Positions 2,703 through 32,460 of a stretch of DNA of 64,000 nucleotides are shown piece after piece (within the stretch, counting starts at the first letter, position 1; each line of letters opens with the position of its first letter). The stretch is from Candidatus Saccharimonadota bacterium. GTDB taxonomy: Bacteria > Patescibacteriota > Saccharimonadia > CAILAD01 > BJGX01. The notes under the pieces are model-generated. The model searched no databases. It was not told the origin of the DNA and was given only the letters and a program-made list of their open reading frames with translations. The stretch covers positions 204,530-268,529 of the forward strand of contig JAXLZU010000001.1 of assembly GCA_046350735.1 (NCBI GenBank), given 5' to 3'. Made by a program: the position numbers and the translations under genes.

Positions 2703-3389
2703 ATGGAACCCCAACAAGTACACCCACAAGCCTCAGGCCTCGAGCCTACTACACAAATGCCAGAATCTAACCCAATGCCACCTAAGAAAGGTGGTAAGGG
2801 CTGGATGATAGTGGCAATTCTTGCCATTATTATTCTTATAGTAGTAAGTGCATTTGGCTATTACAAATGGCAAGCGTATCGCACCAAGGTTGGTGATTTG
2901 GGTGCTCAAGTAAATGCTTTGCAAGCGCAGGTTGATACACTCACTGCTGCGGCAGCATCCACCACTGTCTTAAAGATAAGTGAATTTGGTGTGCAGATGA
3001 CCAAACCAACTGATGCCAAAGATGCCTATTATTATGTCTCGAAAAATGCCGAAGGCAACCAAGTTGCTTCGTTTACCTCGCCTGGTTTACAAAACTTGGC
3101 GGCCACCAACCCATCTACTCCTGCAGTTAGTAACGCATGTGGTCTCAATAGTGCCCCGCTTGGTACAATTACCCAAGTTAAGGCCGGAAGCCTTATTAAG
3201 GGTGTAAAAGTAGAAGATGTTAAGAGTAGCGATACTCTCATTGTGAAGAAGCAAGATGTTTATTACTACGTGTATACAGCACCAACAACACAATGTTCTA
3301 CAGTAAAGACAGTACAAGATTTGCAAACCAAACAAGCCAAATCGCTTCAAGAAAGCTTTAATACTAGCCTAGCAGTCTTGGCAAAATAA
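2703..3389 (+). CDS. membrane-anchored two-Cys surface protein, paralogue 2
   Basis: TM anchor, AQVNALQAQV coiled-coil, and the same two-Cys C-terminal domain (NACGLNSAPLGTI...YYYVY...QCS). Confidence 0.6.
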   Translation: MEPQQVHPQASGLEPTTQMPESNPMPPKKGGKGWMIVAILAIIILIVVSAFGYYKWQAYRTKVGDLGAQVNALQAQVDTLTAAAASTTVLKISEFGVQMTKPTDAKDAYYYVSKNAEGNQVASFTSPGLQNLAATNPSTPAVSNACGLNSAPLGTITQVKAGSLIKGVKVEDVKSSDTLIVKKQDVYYYVYTAPTTQCSTVKTVQDLQTKQAKSLQESFNTSLAVLAK

Positions 3390-3400
3390 GTAGGTAACAA

Positions 3401-4000
3401 ATGAAAGATCAAAACCAAAACACACATCAACCAGTACATAATCCATCAAGTGATCATATTCAGCTTCCCAAAAGAGATAGAGCAAAAACCATTTGGATAG
3501 TAGTAGCAATTATTGCTATTGCAGCACTTATTGGCCTGGCAGCATTTGGATATGTAAAAGTAAAGAATCTCAACAAACAGATTAGCGACCAACAATCGCA
3601 GATAAATGAATTGAATAATACCAAGAAAACACTAGAAGATGCGGCAGCTGCAGCTGCAAGTGCTGCAGCCGCTGCAGCTACAAAAAGTGCTATAAATACT
3701 GTTACTACAAGCGGAACAACAGACACTGCGCTTATTGAAGCTACAAAAAATCATTACATGAGGAATCCTAATATAAAAACTGTAAATGCTACTGTTCAGG
3801 ACAAATCTGGTGATTTTGCGCATGTAAGTGTAAATTTTGGTGAACCAGGTACAAGCAGAACAGCTATTTTTAAAAAAGTGAATAATACTTGGCAGTATAT
3901 TTATGGTGGCACCCAGGCGCCTTGTTCTGATTATGCAGCACTATATGGTCTACCAAGTGGTTGGTATATGGTAGAAAAATGTACAACTACACCGGACTAG
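3401..4000 (+). CDS. membrane-anchored surface protein, paralogue 3 (mosaic)
   Basis: The N-terminus, TM and coiled-coil are nearly identical to 4065 (NLNK.ISDQQ.QINELNNTKKTLEDAA). The C-terminal domain is different and contains two Cys. Confidence 0.6.
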   Translation: MKDQNQNTHQPVHNPSSDHIQLPKRDRAKTIWIVVAIIAIAALIGLAAFGYVKVKNLNKQISDQQSQINELNNTKKTLEDAAAAAASAAAAAATKSAINTVTTSGTTDTALIEATKNHYMRNPNIKTVNATVQDKSGDFAHVSVNFGEPGTSRTAIFKKVNNTWQYIYGGTQAPCSDYAALYGLPSGWYMVEKCTTTPD

Positions 4001-4803: not shown

Positions 4804-6627
4804 ATGACTACCAGTGAAATTCGTTCTAAATTCTTAGAATTCTTTAAAGAAAAAGATCATCAAATAATTCCATCAGCTCCAGTGGTGCCAGAACATGACC
4901 CGACCGTACTATTTACTACTGCCGGTATGCATCCGCTTGTGCCGTATCTTTTAGGTACACCACACCCTCAAGGTAGACGTTTGGCCGATGCCCAAAAATG
5001 TATTCGCACAACCGATATCGATGAGGTGGGTGACAATACGCATTTAACATTTTTTGAAATGTTAGGTAACTGGAGCCTGGGCGATTATTTTAAGAAAGAA
5101 TCAATTGCTTGGAGCTGGGAGTTTCTTACCAGCAAACGTTGGCTCGGTATTGATCCTCACAAACTCTATGTAACGGTATATGAGGGCGATGGTGAAGTGC
5201 CAAAAGATGAAGAATCTATTGCGCTATGGATAGAGCAATACAAATCTGCCGGTATAGATACTCAAGAAGGAGACAGGATTCTCGCACTTGGGCGAGAACA
5301 TAACTGGTGGGAGCAAGGCGGAGTGGCTACTGGCCCAGCCGGACCAGATACCGAAATATTTTATTATGTAGGCCAAGAAAAAGACCCTAAATTTAGTGAA
5401 GACAATGATGATTTTGTAGAGATTTGGAACAATGTGTTTATGGCGTATCAACGTCAGGCCGATGGCAGCTATAGTGAGCTAGAAAATAAGAATGTTGATA
5501 CTGGCATGGGCTTAGAACGAACCAGTTTTATCTTGCAGGGACTAAATAATGTGTACGACACAGATATGCTTTCTCAAATAAAATCGGCAGTACATAACTA
5601 TGCTGCCGAGGTTAGAGAGCCGAGTTTTGTGGCTACCCATCCAGACACGGCCGAGCGAGCTGAGAGAATTATTACTGACCATAGTAGAGCAATTACATTT
5701 ATGGCGGCTGACGGTGTTGTGCCAAGTAATAAAGACCAGGGCTATGTTATGCGACGTTTGGCACGCCGAGCTATTCGCGAGGCATTGGTAATAGGTATTC
5801 AGCACGATCTCTTTGCTCGAATTGTTCCACGTGTGGTTGCTCTCTACGAAGATGAGTATCCAGAGTTAGGAATCAATCAAATACAAATTATGGAAGTGCT
5901 CAAACGCGAAGAAAATGCGTTTAGGCAGACACTTACTCGAGGTCTAAAGGAATTCGAAAAACTTCTTACTAATAAAAAAGAACTTGATGGCCATACCGCT
6001 TTTACGCTATATGACACCTATGGTTTTCCAAAAGAACTCAGTCTTGAGGAAGCTAAGCGGATTAATCTTTCTATCTCAAAATTATTTGAGGCCGAGTTCG
6101 ATCAGCAATTAGAGGCCCAACGCAGTAGAAGTCGTAGTGCTACTGCTGGACAATTTAAAGGTGGGCTGGCCGATAATAGCGAAATTGCCACGCGCTACCA
6201 CACCGCAACACATTTAATGTATAAAGCTTTACGCAATGTGTTGGGTGACCATGTAATGCAGAGGGGAAGTAATATTACCGCCGAGCGTATGCGGTTTGAC
6301 TTTAGTCATGGCGAAAAAATGACGCCTGAGCAAATCAAACAAGTAGAAGATATGGTAAATGAGCAGATTGCCAAAGACCTACCAGTAACGTTTACCGAGA
6401 TGAACAAAGACAAGGCATTTGAGGCTGGAGCTCTGGGTGCCTTTGGTGAAAAATATCCAGATACAGTAAAGGTATATACTGTCGGTGATCCAGAAGGAGA
6501 TTATTACTCTAAAGAAATTTGTGGTGGCCCGCACGTAAGTAAAACGTCTGAGATAGGCAAGTTTAAGATAGTAAAAGAAGAGTCGAGCTCGGCCGGCGTA
6601 CGGCGTATAAAAGCAGTTATAGAATAG
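4804..6627 (+). CDS. alaS: alanine--tRNA ligase, short form lacking the C-Ala domain
   Basis: Class II catalytic core, HxxxH editing motif (HTATHLM) and CGGPHV zinc site. The ORF ends after the editing domain at 607 aa. Confidence 0.9.
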   Translation: MTTSEIRSKFLEFFKEKDHQIIPSAPVVPEHDPTVLFTTAGMHPLVPYLLGTPHPQGRRLADAQKCIRTTDIDEVGDNTHLTFFEMLGNWSLGDYFKKESIAWSWEFLTSKRWLGIDPHKLYVTVYEGDGEVPKDEESIALWIEQYKSAGIDTQEGDRILALGREHNWWEQGGVATGPAGPDTEIFYYVGQEKDPKFSEDNDDFVEIWNNVFMAYQRQADGSYSELENKNVDTGMGLERTSFILQGLNNVYDTDMLSQIKSAVHNYAAEVREPSFVATHPDTAERAERIITDHSRAITFMAADGVVPSNKDQGYVMRRLARRAIREALVIGIQHDLFARIVPRVVALYEDEYPELGINQIQIMEVLKREENAFRQTLTRGLKEFEKLLTNKKELDGHTAFTLYDTYGFPKELSLEEAKRINLSISKLFEAEFDQQLEAQRSRSRSATAGQFKGGLADNSEIATRYHTATHLMYKALRNVLGDHVMQRGSNITAERMRFDFSHGEKMTPEQIKQVEDMVNEQIAKDLPVTFTEMNKDKAFEAGALGAFGEKYPDTVKVYTVGDPEGDYYSKEICGGPHVSKTSEIGKFKIVKEESSSAGVRRIKAVIE

Positions 6628-17919: not shown

Positions 17920-20229
17920 ATGTCAGAAAGAACTCCATCACCAGCAGAGCCTCTGTATCGTAAATATCCAGATTTGCACAAATCTCAGTCAGTAGAGCAC
18001 GAGGTTGCTCGTCTGCGTCAGCATGGTGAGCGTATTCCCAACGAGCCGGCACCCAAGCTAGAAGCTTGGCTTCGGTTATTAGAGAGAACCCACACGGGTA
18101 AAGGTGGTAGTGAGGCCCGCCAAGCCGCGCAGCCACAAGTATACGAGCGCATAAAAACTCTCTACCATCGTCCAACTCAAGAAGGTGGCTATATTACTGG
18201 TCTTGACGATACCTCTATAGAACGGTATTTACGTCATCAAGCTCGTATTGCCCACGAGCAAGGCCACGGCGCTATTGAAGATATTATGGCCCGAGCGAAT
18301 GACCAAGTGCGAGCCGAGGCCAGAGAGACGATTCGAACCGACCAAGAACGTAGTCTCGATGCCTGGCTAGATTACCTTACCTCTGATGATGCCACGTACC
18401 CAATGTGGTTTAAATACTACACCTTCCGCAACATTACCCGTCTGGCCGAGTACGACAAACAAAAGGGTGAGTTCCCCAAGCGTTCTAAATCTACCACTGC
18501 ACCGTTCCCAGATATTAATCGCGAAGCCTTGGCGTATATGGAAGACAGCTTAGCCAAACACTATGGCCTCAAAGATATTGATCCAGATAACCCTAAGGAC
18601 GCTATCGACCCAGAAACTCAAGCGCTCTTAGACAAAGATGCCAACTTTGCCAGTCTCTACAGGCGTGCCATTGAATACGCTGCCCCCAAACACGCCGAAC
18701 AGCTCAATGTTACTGATGGTCGGTGGGTAAAGTACGACCAGACAAGTGACGAGAGTAAGAGTAAAGAGCTAGCCCACTCATTACATGGCTATGGCACAGG
18801 TTGGTGTACCGCCGGTGAGGGCATGGCGCATAGCCAACTGAGTGGTGGTGACTTTTATGTCTACTATACCAAAAGCGAAGATGGTCAGTACTCGGTACCT
18901 CGTGTAGCTATCCGCATGCAAGAAGAATATGGCCAGCAACACATTGCTGAGGTGCGGGGAATTGAAGCCGACCAGAACATGGAAGCAGCGTTGGTACCAA
19001 TTGCCGATGCCAAGCTTGCTGAGATAGACCCTGCAGGTGCTGAACGATACAAGAAACGCTCAGAGGACATGCGCCGCCTCACCGAGATAGACAACCTGCT
19101 CAAAGCTAATCCGAGTGCCGAGCTTAGCAAAGACCAGCTGAGATTTCTCTACGAACTAGATAGTAAGATTGAAGGCTTTGGTTATAACAAGGACCCACGG
19201 ATTGCCGAGATATTACAAACTCGCAACCCAAGGGTTGATTTGGCCTTTACATTAGATGTACAGCCCGAACAAATTAGTCTAACAAAAGAAGAGGCGTTGA
19301 GGGGCAATATAATCTATCACTATGGTAATCTCAACCTCAGCGGCCTGACCTCAGCCGAAGGCTTACAGCTGCCCGAGACGATCGGTGGTAATCTCGACCT
19401 CAACGGCCTGACTTCAGCCGAAGGCTTACAGCTGCCCAAGACGATCGGTGGTGATCTCGAACTCAGAAGCCTGACTTCAGCCGAAGGCTTACAGCTGCCC
19501 AAGACGATCGGTGGTTATCTCGACCTCAACGGCCTGACCACGGCCGAAGGCTTACAGCTGCCCGAGACGGTCGGTGGTGATCTCAACCTCAGCGACCTGA
19601 CCACGGTCGAAGGTTTACAGCTGCCCAAGACGGTCGGTGGTTATCTCGACCTCAGCGACCTGACCACGGCCGAAGGTTTACAGCTGCCCGAGACAATTGG
19701 CGGTGATCTCTACCTCAGAAGCCTGACCTCAGCCGATGGCTTGCACCTGCCTAAGACGATCGGTGGTGATCTCAACCTCAGAAGACTGACCTCAGCTGAT
19801 GGCTTACAGCTACCCAAGACGGTCGGTGGTGATCTCTACCTCAACGGCCTGACCACGGCCGAAGGTTTACAGCTACCCAAGACGGTCGGTGGTTATCTCA
19901 TACTCGAAGGCCTGACCACGGCCGAAGGTTTACAGCTGCCCGAGACGGTCGGTGGTGATCTCTACCTCAACTACCTGACCTCGGCCGAAGGTTTACAGCT
20001 ACCCGAGACGGTCGGTGGTGATCTCTACCTCAACGACCTGACCACGGCCGAAGGTTTACAGCTACCCAAGACGGTCGGTGGTGGTCTCATACTCGAAGGA
20101 CTAACCTCAGCCGAAGGCTTACAGCTGCCCGAGACGATCGGTGGTTATCTCGACCTCAGCAGCCTCGGTGCTGCAGATATAGCTACCCTGAGACAGCAAT
20201 ACCCTCTATTAGCAGACATGATTTATTAA
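17920..20229 (+). CDS. large hypothetical protein: 460-aa N-terminal domain plus 13 tandem 20-aa LRR-like repeats
   Basis: 769 aa with no signal peptide. The C-terminal third is LTSAEGLQLPxTIGGxLxLxx repeated 13 times. GC is about 52%, above the local background. Confidence 0.7.
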   Translation: MSERTPSPAEPLYRKYPDLHKSQSVEHEVARLRQHGERIPNEPAPKLEAWLRLLERTHTGKGGSEARQAAQPQVYERIKTLYHRPTQEGGYITGLDDTSIERYLRHQARIAHEQGHGAIEDIMARANDQVRAEARETIRTDQERSLDAWLDYLTSDDATYPMWFKYYTFRNITRLAEYDKQKGEFPKRSKSTTAPFPDINREALAYMEDSLAKHYGLKDIDPDNPKDAIDPETQALLDKDANFASLYRRAIEYAAPKHAEQLNVTDGRWVKYDQTSDESKSKELAHSLHGYGTGWCTAGEGMAHSQLSGGDFYVYYTKSEDGQYSVPRVAIRMQEEYGQQHIAEVRGIEADQNMEAALVPIADAKLAEIDPAGAERYKKRSEDMRRLTEIDNLLKANPSAELSKDQLRFLYELDSKIEGFGYNKDPRIAEILQTRNPRVDLAFTLDVQPEQISLTKEEALRGNIIYHYGNLNLSGLTSAEGLQLPETIGGNLDLNGLTSAEGLQLPKTIGGDLELRSLTSAEGLQLPKTIGGYLDLNGLTTAEGLQLPETVGGDLNLSDLTTVEGLQLPKTVGGYLDLSDLTTAEGLQLPETIGGDLYLRSLTSADGLHLPKTIGGDLNLRRLTSADGLQLPKTVGGDLYLNGLTTAEGLQLPKTVGGYLILEGLTTAEGLQLPETVGGDLYLNYLTSAEGLQLPETVGGDLYLNDLTTAEGLQLPKTVGGGLILEGLTSAEGLQLPETIGGYLDLSSLGAADIATLRQQYPLLADMIY
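19324..20163 (+). repeat. 13 near-identical in-frame 60-bp tandem repeats
   Basis: Each unit is ctgac(c/t)(t/a)c(a/g)gccgaaggcttacagctgccc(g/a)agacg(a/g)tcggtggt(g/t)atctc... and encodes 20 aa. Confidence 0.85.
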
Positions 20230-21245: not shown

Positions 21246-23078
21246 ATGCTCACAGAGGCCATTGCATTGGCACTAAGACACGGCACATATGTGTATGACA
21301 ATAAAGGCATTCTAGATAAAGAAAAAGCAACCTTCTGTTTTGACGATGGCGACTTTACACCCAACTACTCGCGCGAAGACTTTGCTGCATCAGAAGCTGC
21401 TTTGCTAAATAGACACATCCAGGGCTTGCAGGCAATGTCGCCGCAAGATGAACACTTAAGGGCTTTGGGGCCACAGTACGTTAGTACACGGCTAGGTAGC
21501 CAGAACCGCAAAGATGCACTACGAAATGCACGCAAACACACATTCTTGCCAGTAACACCAGAGTGGACAGATAGAGATGTCGAGTACCAGCTAACTCTGT
21601 TGGGCACTTGGCTAATGCGAGAGGCTCAGCGGAATTTGCCGTTTGGTTGCGTAGAAGCTGCCATTGGATTTTCGCAAAAGAGTCTAAAAGAGCGAGAAGA
21701 GAGACTTAAGGTAGTTTTTGAATATCTTCTGTGCAGTAATTGGTACGCAATTAACGAGTATCGAGCCAAAAAGTTTGCAGAAGAAAAGCGACATAACCCA
21801 CTAGAGGTGTTGCCTCGACAGTACGGCCAGTATCCATCGAGTCTGGTGCGGCCGAATTGCTTAGGTATTAGTGCTATGCTCTGTGGCTGGTGCGAGCTAG
21901 CTGGTGTGGAGTATATGTATGTAAATACTGTTCGCGATAGAAGCAGTACATTTGCTGAGATGTTGGTAGAAACCATTAAGTACTCACTTGCTTGGTGCCA
22001 GCAGCACGAAATTACTCTCTCCGAGGGAGATCTTTTTGCAATGCAGTCTCAGCTAGATGAGTTTACAAACCCCCATAGCGCAAGCCGTTTTCATCATTGT
22101 GTGGCAGTAAAGATGGCAGACGATTATTGGCTGATGTTAGATCCGTACCAAGAGCTATTGTTGCCCATCTCGCCTATAAATCACAGAACTGGCGACAGTA
22201 TAGAAGAAACGTATAGGCTGCTTTGTAGGATGCAAAGCAGCCTACCAGGTGTAGTTGTGCAGTATGAGTCAGAAGACTACGAAGCTATTCGAGGACCAGC
22301 CGAGAATCGTATTCAAGATAGTTTTGTGAGTGCGGTAGATGCTAAGTTATATATACAGTATTTTGGTAAAGACCCAGATACGTTATTTGGTGCAATTAAT
22401 CTTGCTCTCAAAGAAGGGTGGTTTGCGAGCTTTTGGGAAGATAATTGGCAGTCTTGTGGAATTTCGGGTAGCCACTTAGCATTTCCAGATAAAAAACGAG
22501 GTATTAACCATAGAACCTTTTATGAATGTATGTACGGTTGGGTAGGTGCATCAATACTAAACCTTGCCTCTGGCTATCGGTTTTCGAGTCTCGAAAAGTT
22601 AAAAGCCTATTATTCTGCAAACGAGGGTTTTGCTTACCGATACAGAGAATTGTTTCAGGCACTACCAATTATATTGTTTGTGCAGCAAATGCAGAAGTAT
22701 GTGTATGATGACAAATCTCAATATAACCACTTTGTAGTAGAATTTGGTAACCCGGCTTTTCAATTAGCGTGCAATACACTTAATCATTTGAGTGCATGGG
22801 ATGAAGAGTTTTCTGCTATGGTCTCACCGTTTGATATTGCAAAATTTAGTGGTAGCCAACTTATCTGGCACGATGCCTTGGCAAGGTGGTATAATACTGA
22901 CCAGTCTCACCAGGATGCTGAGTGGGAGACGTACCTTATTTCTCAACTTTGTAAATTAGAGAAGTACCAATGGCACTTCCAAACCCGGCAACTACTCACT
23001 TACCCCGACCAGGAGGAACCCAAAGATGCCGAGAATGACGAAAGAGCAGAAGGCAGCCGAGATCATGAAGCTGCGTAG
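21246..23078 (+). CDS. hypothetical 610-aa protein with a transglutaminase-like Cys-His-Asp core
   Basis: NCLGISAMLCGWCELAGVEYMYV (Cys) and HHCVAVKMADDYWLMLDPY (His, Asp), spaced as in TGase-like cysteine peptidases. The last 16 codons lie in the high-GC segment. Confidence 0.55.
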   Translation: MLTEAIALALRHGTYVYDNKGILDKEKATFCFDDGDFTPNYSREDFAASEAALLNRHIQGLQAMSPQDEHLRALGPQYVSTRLGSQNRKDALRNARKHTFLPVTPEWTDRDVEYQLTLLGTWLMREAQRNLPFGCVEAAIGFSQKSLKEREERLKVVFEYLLCSNWYAINEYRAKKFAEEKRHNPLEVLPRQYGQYPSSLVRPNCLGISAMLCGWCELAGVEYMYVNTVRDRSSTFAEMLVETIKYSLAWCQQHEITLSEGDLFAMQSQLDEFTNPHSASRFHHCVAVKMADDYWLMLDPYQELLLPISPINHRTGDSIEETYRLLCRMQSSLPGVVVQYESEDYEAIRGPAENRIQDSFVSAVDAKLYIQYFGKDPDTLFGAINLALKEGWFASFWEDNWQSCGISGSHLAFPDKKRGINHRTFYECMYGWVGASILNLASGYRFSSLEKLKAYYSANEGFAYRYRELFQALPIILFVQQMQKYVYDDKSQYNHFVVEFGNPAFQLACNTLNHLSAWDEEFSAMVSPFDIAKFSGSQLIWHDALARWYNTDQSHQDAEWETYLISQLCKLEKYQWHFQTRQLLTYPDQEEPKDAENDERAEGSRDHEAA

Positions 23079-27964: not shown

Positions 27965-30808
27965 ATGAAAAACTATGATCCCAAAGAGATAGAAGCCAAG
28001 TGGCAAAAAATTTGGCAACAAACAGATTTGTATAAAACTCCAGAGAATCCTAAAAAACCATTTTATAACTTGGTAATGTTTCCCTATCCAAGTGGCGATT
28101 TGCATGTGGGGCACTGGTACAACTTTGCTCCTGCAGACACGCTGGGAAGATTTGCCCGCATGCATGGCTATGATGTGTTGCAGCCTCTTGGCTATGATGC
28201 TTTTGGTTTGCCCGCCGAGAATGCAGCTATTAAGCGAGGTATACCGGCAGACGAGTGGACTGCCAAAAATGTCGCTAATTTTCACCAACAATATCTTAAT
28301 CTTGGTGGCATGTATGATCTAAGTAAAGAAATAAATACATCGAGCCCAGAATATTATCGCTGGACCCAATGGTTGTTTTTGCAATTATTTAACGCCGGCA
28401 AAGCCGTGCAGAAAGAGGCTTATGTCAATTGGGATCCAGTAGATAAAACTGTGCTTGCCAACGAGCAAGTAATAGACGGCCATGCCGATAGAAGTGGGGC
28501 CAAGGTAGAGAGAAAATTACTTAAGCAATGGTTTTTTACTATTACCGATTATGCCGATGAGCTTATTGATGATCTCGAAGGACTAGACTGGCCAGACAGA
28601 GTAAAACAACAACAGATAAATTGGATTGGTAAAAGCCATGGAGCTCTTGTGAAATTTCCATTGGTTGATGCCGATGACTACATAGAAGTTTACACTACCA
28701 GAATTGACACTATTTTTAGCGGTACATTTATTGTGCTTGCACCAGAACATCCAATGATAGCCAAACTAACAGAAGCCAAGTACAAAAAAGAAGTAGAAGA
28801 ATATATCGAACAAGCTGGCTCTAAAACCGATGTGGATCGCCAAGAAGCCAAAGAGAAGACAGGCGTATTTACTGGTAGCTATGTAACTAACCCGGCCAGT
28901 GGAGAAAAAATGCCTGTTTGGGTGGCTGATTTTGTGTTGGGCGGATATGGTACCGGCGCTGTCTTTGCTGATGCGCATGATGAGCGTGATGTAGAGTTTG
29001 CTCGCAAGTACAAGATTCCTTTAAAAGAATCTATCGAGCCGGTTACTGGTACACCTCAAGAAAATCCAGAGTTTCGACGAAGTATTGTTGCATTGGTGAT
29101 AAACCCAGAGACTAATGAAGTACTCACCATCAACTGGGGCAAAAACAATGGCGGCCATATCTTTATTGGTGGTGGTGTTGATGAAGGCGAAGACATTATT
29201 GAGTGCGCCAAACGAGAAATTGCCGAAGAAACTGGCTATAACGACATTAGCTTTATTAAACAGACAGAAAACATTCACCATCATTATTTTGCACATTCCA
29301 AAAATGTGGCACGCGAAATTTTAGCTACCGGCCTACTATTTGAATTAAACTCTGACAAGCAACAAGATCAGAAGTTAGAGCACGATGAAGAGGGTAAATT
29401 TAGTGTTGAGTGGCAACCACAAGCTAAGGTAGATCAACTGGTTACTGACGAGCTTCACCAATATGTATTCGACAGACTCATTAATAACAAAATATGGTCT
29501 GGTGATGGTATTTTGTATAACTCAGACCAATTTGATGGCATGACATCTAGTCAGGCTCGCAAAGAAATTACTGATTGGTTGGCAGAAAAAGGCTTGGCCG
29601 AACATAAGACACAGTATAAATTGCGCGATTGGCTAATAAGCCGTCAACGGTATTGGGGTGCACCTATCCCAATAATTTATTGTGAAAAGTGTGGAGTTGT
29701 GCCAGTACCAGAAGAAGACCTCCCTGTGCTATTGCCTCTTGGACAGAAATTTGATGCCTCTGGGCAATCTCCTCTCTTGCGTGATAGTTTTACCAAAACA
29801 GTATGTCCTACTTGTGGCGGCAGTGCCAAAAGAGAAACTGATACAATGGACACATTTGTAGATAGTAGCTGGTACTATTTGCGATACCCGAATACTCAAT
29901 ACACCAAAGCTGCTTTCGACCCAGACGCCGTAAAGACATGGCTACCAGTTGATAGATATATGGGCGGAATAGAACACGCTATTTTGCACTTGCTCTATGC
30001 TCGGTTTATTACTAAATTCTTGCATTCCGTAGACTTAATTGACTTTAACGAGCCATTTACCAAGCTAATTAACCAAGGTATGATCTTAGGCCCAGATGGC
30101 AATAAGATGAGCAAATCTAAGGGGAATGTTATTGACCCTATGGAATACCTCCAAAAATATGGTGCTGATGCACTGCGATTATATCTAATGTTTATGGGTC
30201 CATACGAGGATGGGGGTCCCTGGGATACCGGAAGGTTTGAGGGTACATTCCGCTTTATCAATAAGGTCTACAATTTAGTTATTGAGCCATACCGTCAGAC
30301 AGATATCGACACGATAATAGAAGCAGATGTAGAAACCCGACTGCACAAGGCTATTAAGAAAGTTGGCGAAGATTTGGGAGCTGTTAAATTTAACACGGCT
30401 ATTGCATCACTAATGGAATTTGTTAATTTCCTTACCAACATCAAGCAGGCCGGCAACATATCTGAGTCTGCTTGGCAGCAGACAGTTAATACGCTTATTA
30501 AAGTTATGGCGCCACTTACACCATATCTAGCTGAAGAGTTATGGGAACACATAGGAGAGGGAGAGAGTGTGCATTTGCAAGCTTGGCCAAAATACAGCGA
30601 AGACAAAGTTAAAGATGATGTGGTAACTATTGTGGTTCAGGTAAACGGTAAGCTCAAAAGCGAGTTCGTTGCCACCTCAGGTAGTAGCCAGGAAGAATTA
30701 GAGACAATGGCGCGCAATTTAGATAAAGAAAAGAATTTTACTAAAAATGGTGAGATAGTAAAAGTTATTGTAGTGCCAAATAGACTTGTAAATTTTGTAG
30801 TAAGATAA
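27965..30808 (+). CDS. leuS: leucine--tRNA ligase with an inserted Nudix hydrolase domain
   Basis: HVGH and KMSKS motifs, CP1 editing domain (TTRIDT, GTGAV..AHD). A perfect Nudix box GGGVDEGEDIIECAKREIAEETGY is inserted at about aa 368-505. Total length 947 aa. Confidence 0.9.
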   Translation: MKNYDPKEIEAKWQKIWQQTDLYKTPENPKKPFYNLVMFPYPSGDLHVGHWYNFAPADTLGRFARMHGYDVLQPLGYDAFGLPAENAAIKRGIPADEWTAKNVANFHQQYLNLGGMYDLSKEINTSSPEYYRWTQWLFLQLFNAGKAVQKEAYVNWDPVDKTVLANEQVIDGHADRSGAKVERKLLKQWFFTITDYADELIDDLEGLDWPDRVKQQQINWIGKSHGALVKFPLVDADDYIEVYTTRIDTIFSGTFIVLAPEHPMIAKLTEAKYKKEVEEYIEQAGSKTDVDRQEAKEKTGVFTGSYVTNPASGEKMPVWVADFVLGGYGTGAVFADAHDERDVEFARKYKIPLKESIEPVTGTPQENPEFRRSIVALVINPETNEVLTINWGKNNGGHIFIGGGVDEGEDIIECAKREIAEETGYNDISFIKQTENIHHHYFAHSKNVAREILATGLLFELNSDKQQDQKLEHDEEGKFSVEWQPQAKVDQLVTDELHQYVFDRLINNKIWSGDGILYNSDQFDGMTSSQARKEITDWLAEKGLAEHKTQYKLRDWLISRQRYWGAPIPIIYCEKCGVVPVPEEDLPVLLPLGQKFDASGQSPLLRDSFTKTVCPTCGGSAKRETDTMDTFVDSSWYYLRYPNTQYTKAAFDPDAVKTWLPVDRYMGGIEHAILHLLYARFITKFLHSVDLIDFNEPFTKLINQGMILGPDGNKMSKSKGNVIDPMEYLQKYGADALRLYLMFMGPYEDGGPWDTGRFEGTFRFINKVYNLVIEPYRQTDIDTIIEADVETRLHKAIKKVGEDLGAVKFNTAIASLMEFVNFLTNIKQAGNISESAWQQTVNTLIKVMAPLTPYLAEELWEHIGEGESVHLQAWPKYSEDKVKDDVVTIVVQVNGKLKSEFVATSGSSQEELETMARNLDKEKNFTKNGEIVKVIVVPNRLVNFVVR

Positions 30809-31361: not shown

Positions 31362-31976
31362 ATGGCATCGAACCGTCACCTCTGTAGAATAATCGCCTTG
31401 CAAAGTTTGTATGAATACGACTTTCGCACTTCTTTAGATATGGAAGATCTCAAAACCGATATGGATGAAATATTGGCACGAAATCTTGCAGTCTATGCAG
31501 ATTCTTTAGAAGAAGATGATTTTGTAGTAGACCTAGTAAAAGGCACACTAAAAAATCAAGATAAGCTCGATGCTCTGATAGTTCCGGCAGCTCCAGAATG
31601 GCCAATTGATCAGATTGCCAAAATTGACAAAGAGATATTGCGTCTGGCTACATACGAGCTTATGATAAAGCGCGATGTACCACCAAAAGTTGCTATTAAT
31701 GAAGCAGTAGAACTAGCCAAAAGTTTTGGCGGTGATAACTCTAGTAAGTTTATTAACGGCGTACTTGGCACAATCTATAGAAGTAGTGAAATATATGAAC
31801 CAGAAGAAGACAAAAAATTCCAGGCAGAAAAGCAGGCGATGGCGCCGCAGTCAGCAGAATCAGCAAAAGCAGACAAACCAGCAAGCGCCAAACCAAAGCC
31901 AGTCAAATCAGGCGACAACGACACCGCAGGTGCAAGTTCAGAATCAGAACCAAAATCGCCAGCCAAATCGGAATAA
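31362..31976 (+). CDS. nusB: transcription antitermination factor NusB with a low-complexity C-terminal tail
   Basis: [17 protein letters not shown] NusB signature. The core is about 140 aa, followed by an A/S/P/K/E-rich tail of about 60 aa. Confidence 0.8.
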
Positions 31977-32460
31977 GAAAAAACATCCCGGAGAGCATAC
32001 CCAGAAAGTTGCTCGTCAAAAAGCTGTCCGCGAATATTCTAGCGGAGGGATTGTTTTTCGTGTAGTTGATAGTTCTATAGAGATTTTACTCTTGCAAGAC
32101 CTTAAGACGCGTTGGTCTATTCCGAAGGGTCATATAGAATCTGGCGAAACCCCCAAACAAGCAGCTTTACGTGAAGTTTCCGAAGAAACCAATCTAAAAG
32201 AATTAAAGATACATTCTAAGCTCGATAAAATTCACTTCTTCTATCGAATGGAGGGTAAGCTTATCTTTATGACCAATTTTATTTATCTTATTGAGTCTAC
32301 CAACCACAATGAAACTATTAAGACAGAAGATGATGCGCCATGGATTACCGATGTGCAGTGGTTTGAAGCCGAACAGGCATATGATATCCTAGAGTATAAG
32401 GCAACCAAAATTATCTTGCGAGAGGCAATTAATCGCATTAAGGCTCTGTACAATCTCTAA
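31795..32460 (+). CDS. Nudix hydrolase; start uncertain, overlaps the nusB 3' end in another frame
   Basis: Nudix box [23 protein letters not shown]. There is no in-frame ATG between the nusB stop and the Nudix fold. Candidate starts are ATG 31795 and ATG 31726. Confidence 0.6.

Follow-up and report, generated by a model that had tools for sequence, protein, structure and literature searches.

A Nudix hydrolase domain within the CP1 editing domain of a Saccharibacteria leucyl-tRNA synthetase: conservation, recurrence among synthetases and possible function

Why should a leucyl-tRNA synthetase (LeuRS) carry a second enzyme inside the domain with which it proofreads? The question is raised by leuS, the LeuRS gene found in a stretch of 64,000 nucleotides (nt) from Candidatus Saccharimonadota bacterium (assembly GCA_046350735.1, contig JAXLZU010000001.1, positions 204,530 to 268,529 of the forward strand; hereafter, the window), which encodes a protein of 947 amino acids (aa) with a Nudix domain in its interior. 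An initial annotation, made from the sequence alone, had noticed this domain and predicted that it is catalytically competent. It is rare for a bacterial synthetase to have an enzyme domain built into its proofreading domain, and the LeuRS-Nudix arrangement is conserved in very diverse microbes that are uncultivated and depend on a host. A full-text literature search found no description of a LeuRS-Nudix fusion; the public databases already hold such proteins, with precomputed NUDIX matches, as 'leucyl-tRNA synthetase' or, in the NCBI naming, as 'class I tRNA ligase family protein'.

An ordinary leuS gene with a Nudix domain in frame

The gene and the signatures of its catalytic core are the following:

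27965..30808 (+): leuS, leucyl-tRNA synthetase of 947 aa with the Nudix insert inside (single open reading frame, TIGR00396, identical protein on five contigs, synteny with a Nudix-less orthologue)
28103..28114 (+): HIGH signature HVGH of the class I catalytic core, aa 47-50 (H47, G49 and H50 invariant in the alignment)
30104..30118 (+): KMSKS signature of the class I catalytic core, aa 714-718 (located by motif)

The leuS gene is one open reading frame (ORF) with no stop and no frameshift. The whole protein scores 976 bits against the NCBIfam model TIGR00396 (leuS_bact; cut-off 548.4) and 771 bits against the LeuRS of Thermus thermophilus (1h3n), and its Pfam domains follow one another in the order class I core, editing domain, NUDIX, class I core and anticodon-binding domain. 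The initial annotation had located the Nudix domain at 29066-29479, and this segment is indeed intact and in frame within LeuRS (aa 368-505 of the single ORF), with a Pfam NUDIX match at E=2e-13 and an exact Nudix box. By all the features of sequence and fold that lend themselves to examination, the protein belongs both to the bacterial LeuRS family and to the Nudix superfamily.

A trivial explanation would be that a frameshift, a chimeric assembly or a recent intein-like insertion had joined a separate Nudix ORF to leuS. We found nothing in its favour, and it is already refuted, its probability being practically nil. The ORF is continuous and the same 947-aa protein, 100% identical, is encoded on five contigs coming from at least three sequencing runs, which excludes a frameshift or a misassembly; together with the exact Nudix box, this disposes of all the events (frameshift, misassembly, degenerate box) that the initial annotation had regarded as fatal to its reading. 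A recent foreign or mobile insertion, or an intein, was rejected as well, since the GC content of the insert is like that of its flanks (0.402 against 0.418 for the remaining leuS), NUDIX is the sole Pfam match within the insert, where neither an intein nor an endonuclease domain was recognised, and the Nudix copies found in some LeuRS are old (see below). Moreover, more than 130 homologues, with body identity down to 41%, keep the site and the length of the insert.

The insert lies within the CP1 editing domain

The segments of CP1 and the insertion were delimited as follows:

28619..29023 (+): first three quarters of the CP1 editing domain, on its N-terminal side, aa 219-353 (match to positions 2-148 of the 185-position Pfam profile PF13603)
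28694-28711 (+): T-rich motif TTRIDT of CP1, aa 244-249 (located by motif)
28976-28990 (+): HDERD motif with the conserved editing Asp, aa 338-342 (located by motif)
29024..29506 (+): 161-aa insertion, aa 354-514, made of the Nudix domain and two short conserved linkers (homologue alignment, AlphaFold2)
29507..29617 (+): C-terminal remainder of CP1, aa 515-551, formed by the strand GIL, the helix SSQARKEITDWLAEK and a further strand (alignment with T. thermophilus, secondary structure of the full-length AlphaFold2 model)

The insert is bounded by KYKIPL, which ends at aa 353, and by GILYNS, which starts at aa 515; in Nudix-less relatives, a loop of 8-25 aa occupies the same site. Residues 368 and 511 of our LeuRS align with residues 372 and 377 of the T. 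thermophilus enzyme, and therefore the Nudix domain replaces a short loop: the T. thermophilus LeuRS has about 23 residues (~358-380) where our protein has an enzyme domain in a 161-aa insert. From residue 377 of T. thermophilus onwards the alignment continues in the C-terminal remainder of CP1, which leads the chain back to the catalytic core. None of the solved LeuRS structures covers residues 369-510.

The initial annotation had placed the insertion after CP1; two observations move it inside the last quarter of this domain. In LeuRS that bear a Nudix domain, the match to the Pfam editing profile of 185 positions (aa 219-365 and 189 bits in our protein) stops at about position 148-151, whereas it runs unbroken to position 184 in the Nudix-less homologue P0018, and all the crystallised CP1 constructs extend for about 45-55 residues beyond the insertion point. 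When the insert was deleted in silico and the protein rescanned with Pfam, the editing-domain match was not extended. Taken together, alignments and profiles identify the insertion site as a surface loop inside the CP1 editing domain. The linkers are conserved too (IEPVTG..PQ on the N-terminal side, [ST]G[DE] on the C-terminal side) and are modelled with a predicted local distance difference test score (pLDDT) of ~83-91 in the full-length protein.

Our LeuRS resembles canonical enzymes (TIGR00396; 1h3n from T. thermophilus; 4aq7/4arc from E. coli) in the HIGH and KMSKS signatures, in the T-rich motif of CP1 and in the editing Asp. Residues T244, T245, R246, D248, T249, H338, D339, R341 and D342 do not vary among 49 LeuRS, whether or not these carry the insert. 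Since the HIGH, KMSKS, T-rich and HDERD motifs are present and invariant, both the synthetase and the editing functions look intact, and the gene is the ordinary housekeeping leuS of the organism.

In the LeuRS of Saccharibacteria there is a second hot spot for insertions, at the start of CP1: P0018 carries there (aa 247-344) an ASCH domain, which is PUA-like and RNA-binding, and five other homologues (P0021, P0022, P0026, P0030 and P0094) have, after the position of aa 237 of our protein, an insert of ~125 aa with no Pfam match.

A conserved and probably active Nudix hydrolase

The elements of the Nudix domain are:

29075..29431 (+): match to Pfam NUDIX PF00293, aa 371-489 (E=2e-13; 50.8 bits, the gathering score being 21.1)
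29171..29239 (+): Nudix box GGVDEGEDIIECAKREIAEETGY, aa 403-425 (exact fit to GX5EX7REUXEEXGU)
29276..29302 (+): subfamily-specific motif HHHYFAHSK, aa 438-446, downstream of the box (Lys446 98% conserved)

Taken alone, the segment 29066-29479 matches PF00293 with 55.8 bits (gathering score 21.1). When the window was translated in six frames, the strict box pattern was matched a single time, and 100 shuffles gave no match. The catalytic and metal-binding positions of the box are E409, R417, E418, E421 and E422, and in 312 related domains we observed the following conservation: G403 99%, E409 91%, R417 91%, E418 99%, E421 98% and E422 100%. Further positions typical of this family, conserved over ~300 domains, are W391, K446 (98%) and W483 (97%); the HHHYFAHSK motif, to which K446 belongs, is possibly involved in phosphate binding. 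AlphaFold2, run on 31 inserts, returned an alpha/beta/alpha Nudix fold, including the loop-helix-loop formed by the box, with a pLDDT of 94 and a predicted template modelling score (pTM) of 0.88 for our insert, and the model of the full-length LeuRS (pLDDT 88, pTM 0.76) shows structured linkers.

The high conservation of the box and of the three metal-binding glutamates over ~300 domains indicates an active hydrolase. The strict box is kept in 263 of 303 related domains, and most of the remaining boxes belong to one branch in which the glutamate at position 7 is changed to glutamine (E7 -> Q) and the arginine at position 15 to methionine or alanine (R15 -> M/A), the three metal-binding glutamates being retained. 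These altered positions, and the finding that tandem Nudix copies often pair a canonical box with a variant one, are what could be said for a non-catalytic domain, in which the Nudix fold is reused for binding of tRNA or proteins or for stability. Non-catalytic Nudix folds, such as the C-terminal domain of MutY, NrtR and AraR, have degenerate boxes, unlike our insert, whose metal-binding glutamates are 98-100% conserved among ~300 domains otherwise only 20-60% identical, and a non-catalytic role is therefore, in our opinion, highly improbable. Thus, the catalytic competence foreseen by the initial annotation is well sustained by the strict boxes, the conserved glutamates and the modelled fold, and the insert very probably still catalyses hydrolysis.

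The variant-box sub-branch (P0180, P0204, P0211, P0160, P0161, P0182 and others) includes full-length LeuRS, an example of its box being GGIEEGQTAEEAARMEILEETGY; position 15 is M, A or T in this group.

The architecture is ancient and the insert appears to have been lost repeatedly

The initial annotation had left to a comparison of orthologues how widespread the insertion is. The nearest 120 homologues of our LeuRS are 50-99% identical to it, and where they bear a name they are labelled Saccharibacteria/Saccharimonadales; 61 of them carry at the same site an insert of 157-165 aa, and the other 59 have the loop of 8-25 aa. A profile of the insert was then scanned against one genome per species for 185,579 species, in which at least 512 stretches encode a relative; 80 loci were kept. 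In 79 of these 80 the relative lies within a long reading frame of ~620-1,190 aa, and all the 71 full-length LeuRS among them have the insert at the same site as our protein. Overall, 132 homologues share the site with a length of 157-165 aa. The titles of the carrier records name Saccharibacteria, Paceibacterota/Parcubacteria, Giovannonibacteria, Minisyncoccia and metagenome-assembled genomes (MAGs) from the gut called Bacilli, Tenericutes, Mycoplasmatota or Bacillota.

Site and length of the insert are unchanged even in LeuRS whose bodies are only 41-50% identical to ours, and over this deep divergence the insert (identity 0.44) has changed about as much as the catalytic core (0.47). In a neighbour-joining tree of 192 LeuRS bodies, which is crude and whose sampling is biased toward carriers, the insert is placed at the root, with at least 12 changes of state. 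Nudix-less proteins, P0013 and P0029 among them, are nested within the clade of our LeuRS, and the leuS gene of P0029 has exactly the same neighbour genes as that of the window. These comparisons depict an architecture that is ancient, kept at one site in Saccharibacteria, in other Patescibacteria and in gut MAGs labelled Bacilli/Tenericutes, with an insert that is under purifying selection and that appears to have been cleanly excised several times. Such precise losses offer natural, ready-made controls.

Several species-representative carrier MAGs (L004, L011, L013, L014, L016, L033, L040, L043, L061 and L072) have implausible titles, which name Gammaproteobacteria, Muribaculaceae, Roseburia or Clostridium. 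Since the LeuRS of these MAGs group with those of Patescibacteria or with the Bacilli-type, labels or bins are probably wrong.

A locus of a MAG labelled Candidatus Paceibacterota (L028, GC 0.25) was considered as a free-standing gene of 157 aa and rejected: it is a piece of LeuRS cut by in-frame TGA codons at conserved Trp positions. One of the TGA in this LeuRS-Nudix frame (2940-3420) falls at the Trp of the KVEW motif, which is 97% conserved, and this suggests that the genome reads TGA as Trp, as in a code 4-like table. Under table 4 the frame is still broken elsewhere.

The same Nudix subfamily in other synthetases and beside their genes

When 1.84 billion cluster representatives were searched exhaustively with HMMER, 2,805 relatives of the insert came out at E<=1e-3; 325 of them reached E<=1e-10, and 28 reached E<=1e-30. 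LeuRS, whole or in fragments, account for almost all of the 150 best-scoring representatives, and the long proteins among these are nearly all LeuRS.

Several LeuRS have two or three Nudix copies, confirmed by Pfam (P0121, P0122, P0130, P0134, P0137, P0128, P0151, P0170, P0252 and P0074). The additional sites are in tandem just before CP1 and near the zinc-binding loop of the core (about aa 614-620 in our numbering), and in P0074 a Nudix domain follows the last CP1 helix (after aa 537-542). Copies in one LeuRS are 20-45% identical, whereas between proteins the identity of copies that share a position is 59-61%; since copies within a protein are less alike than positional orthologues, the duplications are old. 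In P0130 two copies precede CP1 and none is present at the site found in our protein.

The subfamily is also found in class II synthetases. P0229 is a prolyl-tRNA synthetase (ProRS) with a Nudix domain between the anticodon-binding and the C-terminal domains, and five clusters of this kind (P0229 and P0283-P0286) occur among ProRS named Nanoarchaeota/Woesearchaeota. Two loci of DPANN-like archaea encode such a ProRS-Nudix (L085 2906-4837 and L096 2762-4693), the latter with a free-standing paralogue two genes upstream of the Nudix-bearing proS. When the Nudix segment of ProRS was used by itself in a word-indexed search, it gave no match.

Nine free-standing relatives could be placed on contigs, and six of them lie within two genes of an aminoacyl-tRNA synthetase (aaRS) gene: one 2 nt before a leuS that carries the insert; one 13 nt after argS and near ileS; two near proS, in one case a proS with its own Nudix insert; one 87 nt before thrS (L098 4001-4480), with thrS-miaA downstream; and one 4 nt before valS, between tsaD and valS (L094 711-1175). 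The other three have fpg or uninformative neighbours. If a gene were picked at random from a genome with ~800 genes, we would expect an aaRS neighbour in about 10% of cases, which is a rough estimate; six out of nine therefore represents a marked enrichment, with the caution due to a small sample. On these grounds, the Nudix subfamily of the insert has been recruited repeatedly by aaRS of both classes, and this recurrence lends indirect support to a link of some kind with the chemistry of synthetases.

P0131, considered as a possible broken leuS, proved to be a true free-standing gene upstream of valS. The relatives of L094 and L098 adjoin tRNA-modification genes (tsaD and miaA) besides the synthetases. 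In L081-L084 (7386-10889 in L081), a 1167-aa isoleucyl-tRNA synthetase (IleRS) harbours a histidine-phosphatase domain (His_Phos_1, PGM/CobC-like) that occupies about aa 504-670; Nudix genes flank the IleRS gene, argS lies just upstream, and the neighbours include many genes of nucleotide house-cleaning (dUTPase, thymidylate kinase, NTPase_I-T).

Relation to Nudix enzymes of known function

Comparison of sequence and fold did not pick out a single substrate class for the insert. Among the curated NCBIfam models no family threshold was reached: the best matches, the RppH models NF001936 and NF001938, gave 27.8 bits against thresholds of 116-118, and the MutT model TIGR00586 gave 17.8 bits against 97.9. 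Sequence matches in the PDB cover the box region only. The first Foldseek match is 2azw, a MutT/nudix family protein of Enterococcus faecalis from structural genomics, 15-18% identical to the insert, free-standing and with no function in its title; it is followed by E. coli RppH, including its Ap4A (diadenosine tetraphosphate) complex 7sp3, which is the best match of known function. By these measures the insert is not demonstrable as a member of the RppH, MutT or Ap4A hydrolase families. In PADLOC-DB it has a weak match of 24 bits to the candidate model PDC-S07, and two free-standing relatives have no match there.

With RppH/NudH and the Nudix-type Ap4A-Ap6A hydrolases the insert shares the Nudix box, the fold and a single-domain, apparently monomeric format. 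By contrast, it is only 15-22% identical to them, scores far under their family cut-offs, has motifs of its own (W391, Y/F-x-A-x-x-K446 and W483) and is embedded in a synthetase instead of being free-standing. Mycobacterial MutT1/Rv2985, a diadenosine polyphosphatase/8-oxo-(d)GTPase made of a Nudix and a histidine-phosphatase domain, is another structural neighbour (~15-18% identity), but it is a two-domain stand-alone enzyme; the same pairing recurs in the IleRS with the His_Phos_1 insert described above, whose flanking Nudix genes are of the same subfamily as our insert. A precedent for a bacterial class I aaRS with an extra catalytic domain is NF040702 (isoleucine--tRNA ligase, N-acetyltransferase domain-containing), which differs in being an IleRS and not a LeuRS, and in carrying a GNAT and not a Nudix domain; our protein is not a member (65.6 against 1999 bits).

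A possible role in the removal of adenylate-derived nucleotides

The features above suggest that the insert is an active, monomeric, metal-dependent hydrolase of the RppH/dinucleoside-polyphosphate-hydrolase kind, and its presence in several synthetases points to a substrate that would be common to them. A single copy in a monomeric synthetase would fit the monomeric RppH/ApnA/MutT type better than the domain-swapped dimers of ADP-ribose pyrophosphatases. Synthetases make Ap4A from aminoacyl-AMP and ATP, and RppH/NudH also hydrolyses ApnA. We tentatively favour an enzyme similar to RppH and ApnA hydrolases that destroys adenylate-derived polyphosphate nucleotides, a reading that we consider quite possible, if somewhat short of an even chance; we prefer it because these substrates have the most precedent and because RppH/ApnA-hydrolase enzymes are among the nearest characterised neighbours. 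Enzyme-bound aminoacyl-AMP would react with ATP or ADP to give products of the Ap4A/Ap3A type; the tethered Nudix domain would cleave them, either free or as caps at RNA 5' ends; and the cleavage would recycle ATP and AMP and prevent the build-up of ApnA in cells with a minimal nucleotide metabolism.

Several points weigh against this proposal. LeuRS is not known to be a strong producer of Ap4A, and ArgRS, whose gene adjoins one of the free-standing relatives, is not known to make any. The similarity to the RppH models is weak, and no substrate class is singled out by the comparisons described above. One sub-branch has changed box positions 7 and 15. The insert was lost repeatedly in Saccharibacteria with no visible replacement nearby, which makes it dispensable, and the free-standing relative beside fpg hints at a MutT-like role.

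Some of these same observations would be expected if the domain were a generic house-cleaning Nudix enzyme, for example a MutT-type pyrophosphatase of oxidised or non-canonical NTPs, that rides on an essential and constitutive gene in streamlined genomes with no link to aminoacylation. Besides the fpg neighbour and the repeated losses, the free-standing relatives are labelled 'MutT' by their sources, one of them is near dUTPase, thymidylate kinase and NTPase_I-T, and the variable insertion sites would mean that the exact geometry is unimportant. On the other hand, the recurrent fusion is specific to aaRS (LeuRS at no fewer than four sites, and ProRS), and free-standing relatives are enriched beside aaRS genes; an insertion within a loop is also harder to obtain than an end-to-end fusion, and the score against the MutT model is far under its threshold. 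We consider this alternative unlikely, if still worth keeping in mind.

The position in or beside CP1, a domain that handles the acceptor end, would suit an activity on RNA ends: a Nudix domain held by CP1 could strip a 5'-triphosphate or a cap from the bound tRNA, or repair a blocked 3'-CCA (for instance, a pyrophosphorylated one), so that only clean tRNA is charged. RppH is the best characterised neighbour both in sequence and in the Foldseek ranking, free-standing relatives lie beside tsaD and miaA as well as aaRS genes, and in P0018 the RNA-binding ASCH domain sits at a neighbouring site of LeuRS. Against this stand the lack of evidence for 5'-triphosphate or capped tRNAs in these organisms, the similarity to RppH far under the family thresholds, and the site of the ProRS insertion, whose place between the anticodon-binding and the C-terminal domain has no obvious proximity to the acceptor end. 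A role at RNA ends seems to us distinctly unlikely.

Pre-transfer proofreading of a new kind would be a further option, the Nudix domain hydrolysing mis-activated aminoacyl-adenylates (such as norvalyl-, isoleucyl- or alanyl-AMP) that leave the synthetic site, in cis when fused and in trans when free-standing. In fact, the partners LeuRS, IleRS, ValRS, ThrRS and ProRS are all error-prone synthetases that edit. Nevertheless, cleavage of an acyl-phosphate mixed anhydride is not known for any Nudix enzyme, the CP1 editing residues are fully conserved with or without the insert, so that no editing deficit is apparent, and the adjacency to argS does not fit; this makes the option very unlikely. In a broader form, the subfamily could be a general and hitherto unrecognised partner of aaRS in ultra-small bacteria and archaea (candidate phyla radiation, reduced Bacilli, DPANN), in cis if fused and in trans if encoded next door, with a quality-control or repair function on species held by the synthetase; candidate roles would be the hydrolysis of mis-activated aminoacyl-adenylates or the cleaning of the acceptor end (5'-triphosphate, cap, toxin-blocked 3'-CCA) before charging. 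We regard so general a function as rather improbable.

Whatever the substrate, the recurrence of this Nudix domain in LeuRS (one to three copies), in ProRS and beside valS, thrS, proS, leuS and ileS argues that cells whose nucleotide metabolism is minimal face a real liability in some nucleotide side-product or RNA end that synthetases handle, and such cells appear to meet it with a tethered hydrolase. Identification of the substrate would connect the side chemistry of aaRS (Ap4A-type alarmones, RNA caps, adenylates) with an activity dedicated to cleaning it up, assign a function to a Nudix clade of ~2,800 representative clusters, and improve the annotation of the genes named only 'class I tRNA ligase family protein'.

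Other genes of the window

Another aaRS gene of the window, encoding an AlaRS (4804..6627 (+)), has no Nudix insert; its product is short, with 607 aa, and ends at the tRNA_SAD domain. Two large ORFs, 17920..20229 (+) of 769 aa and 21246..23078 (+) of 610 aa, have no Pfam match above threshold. Downstream of leuS lies a further Nudix gene:

31930..32460 (+): stand-alone Nudix gene with a GTG start, 176 aa (Pfam E=7e-17)

The initial annotation had pointed to this second, stand-alone gene, which is present, but the gene is at most a distant relative of the insert, the two being only 26% identical over 82 aa. That the insert is a duplicate of it was rejected for this reason, and because the gene is also found at the same place in a Nudix-less relative. 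Its product matches the PADLOC-DB model PDC-S07 with 33.6 bits, a higher score than that of the insert, and its box ends in N and not in G (REVSEETNL). The gene overlaps the 3' end of nusB (31362..31976) by 47 nt and abuts rnc, and the order nusB-Nudix-rnc is kept in the relative L090.

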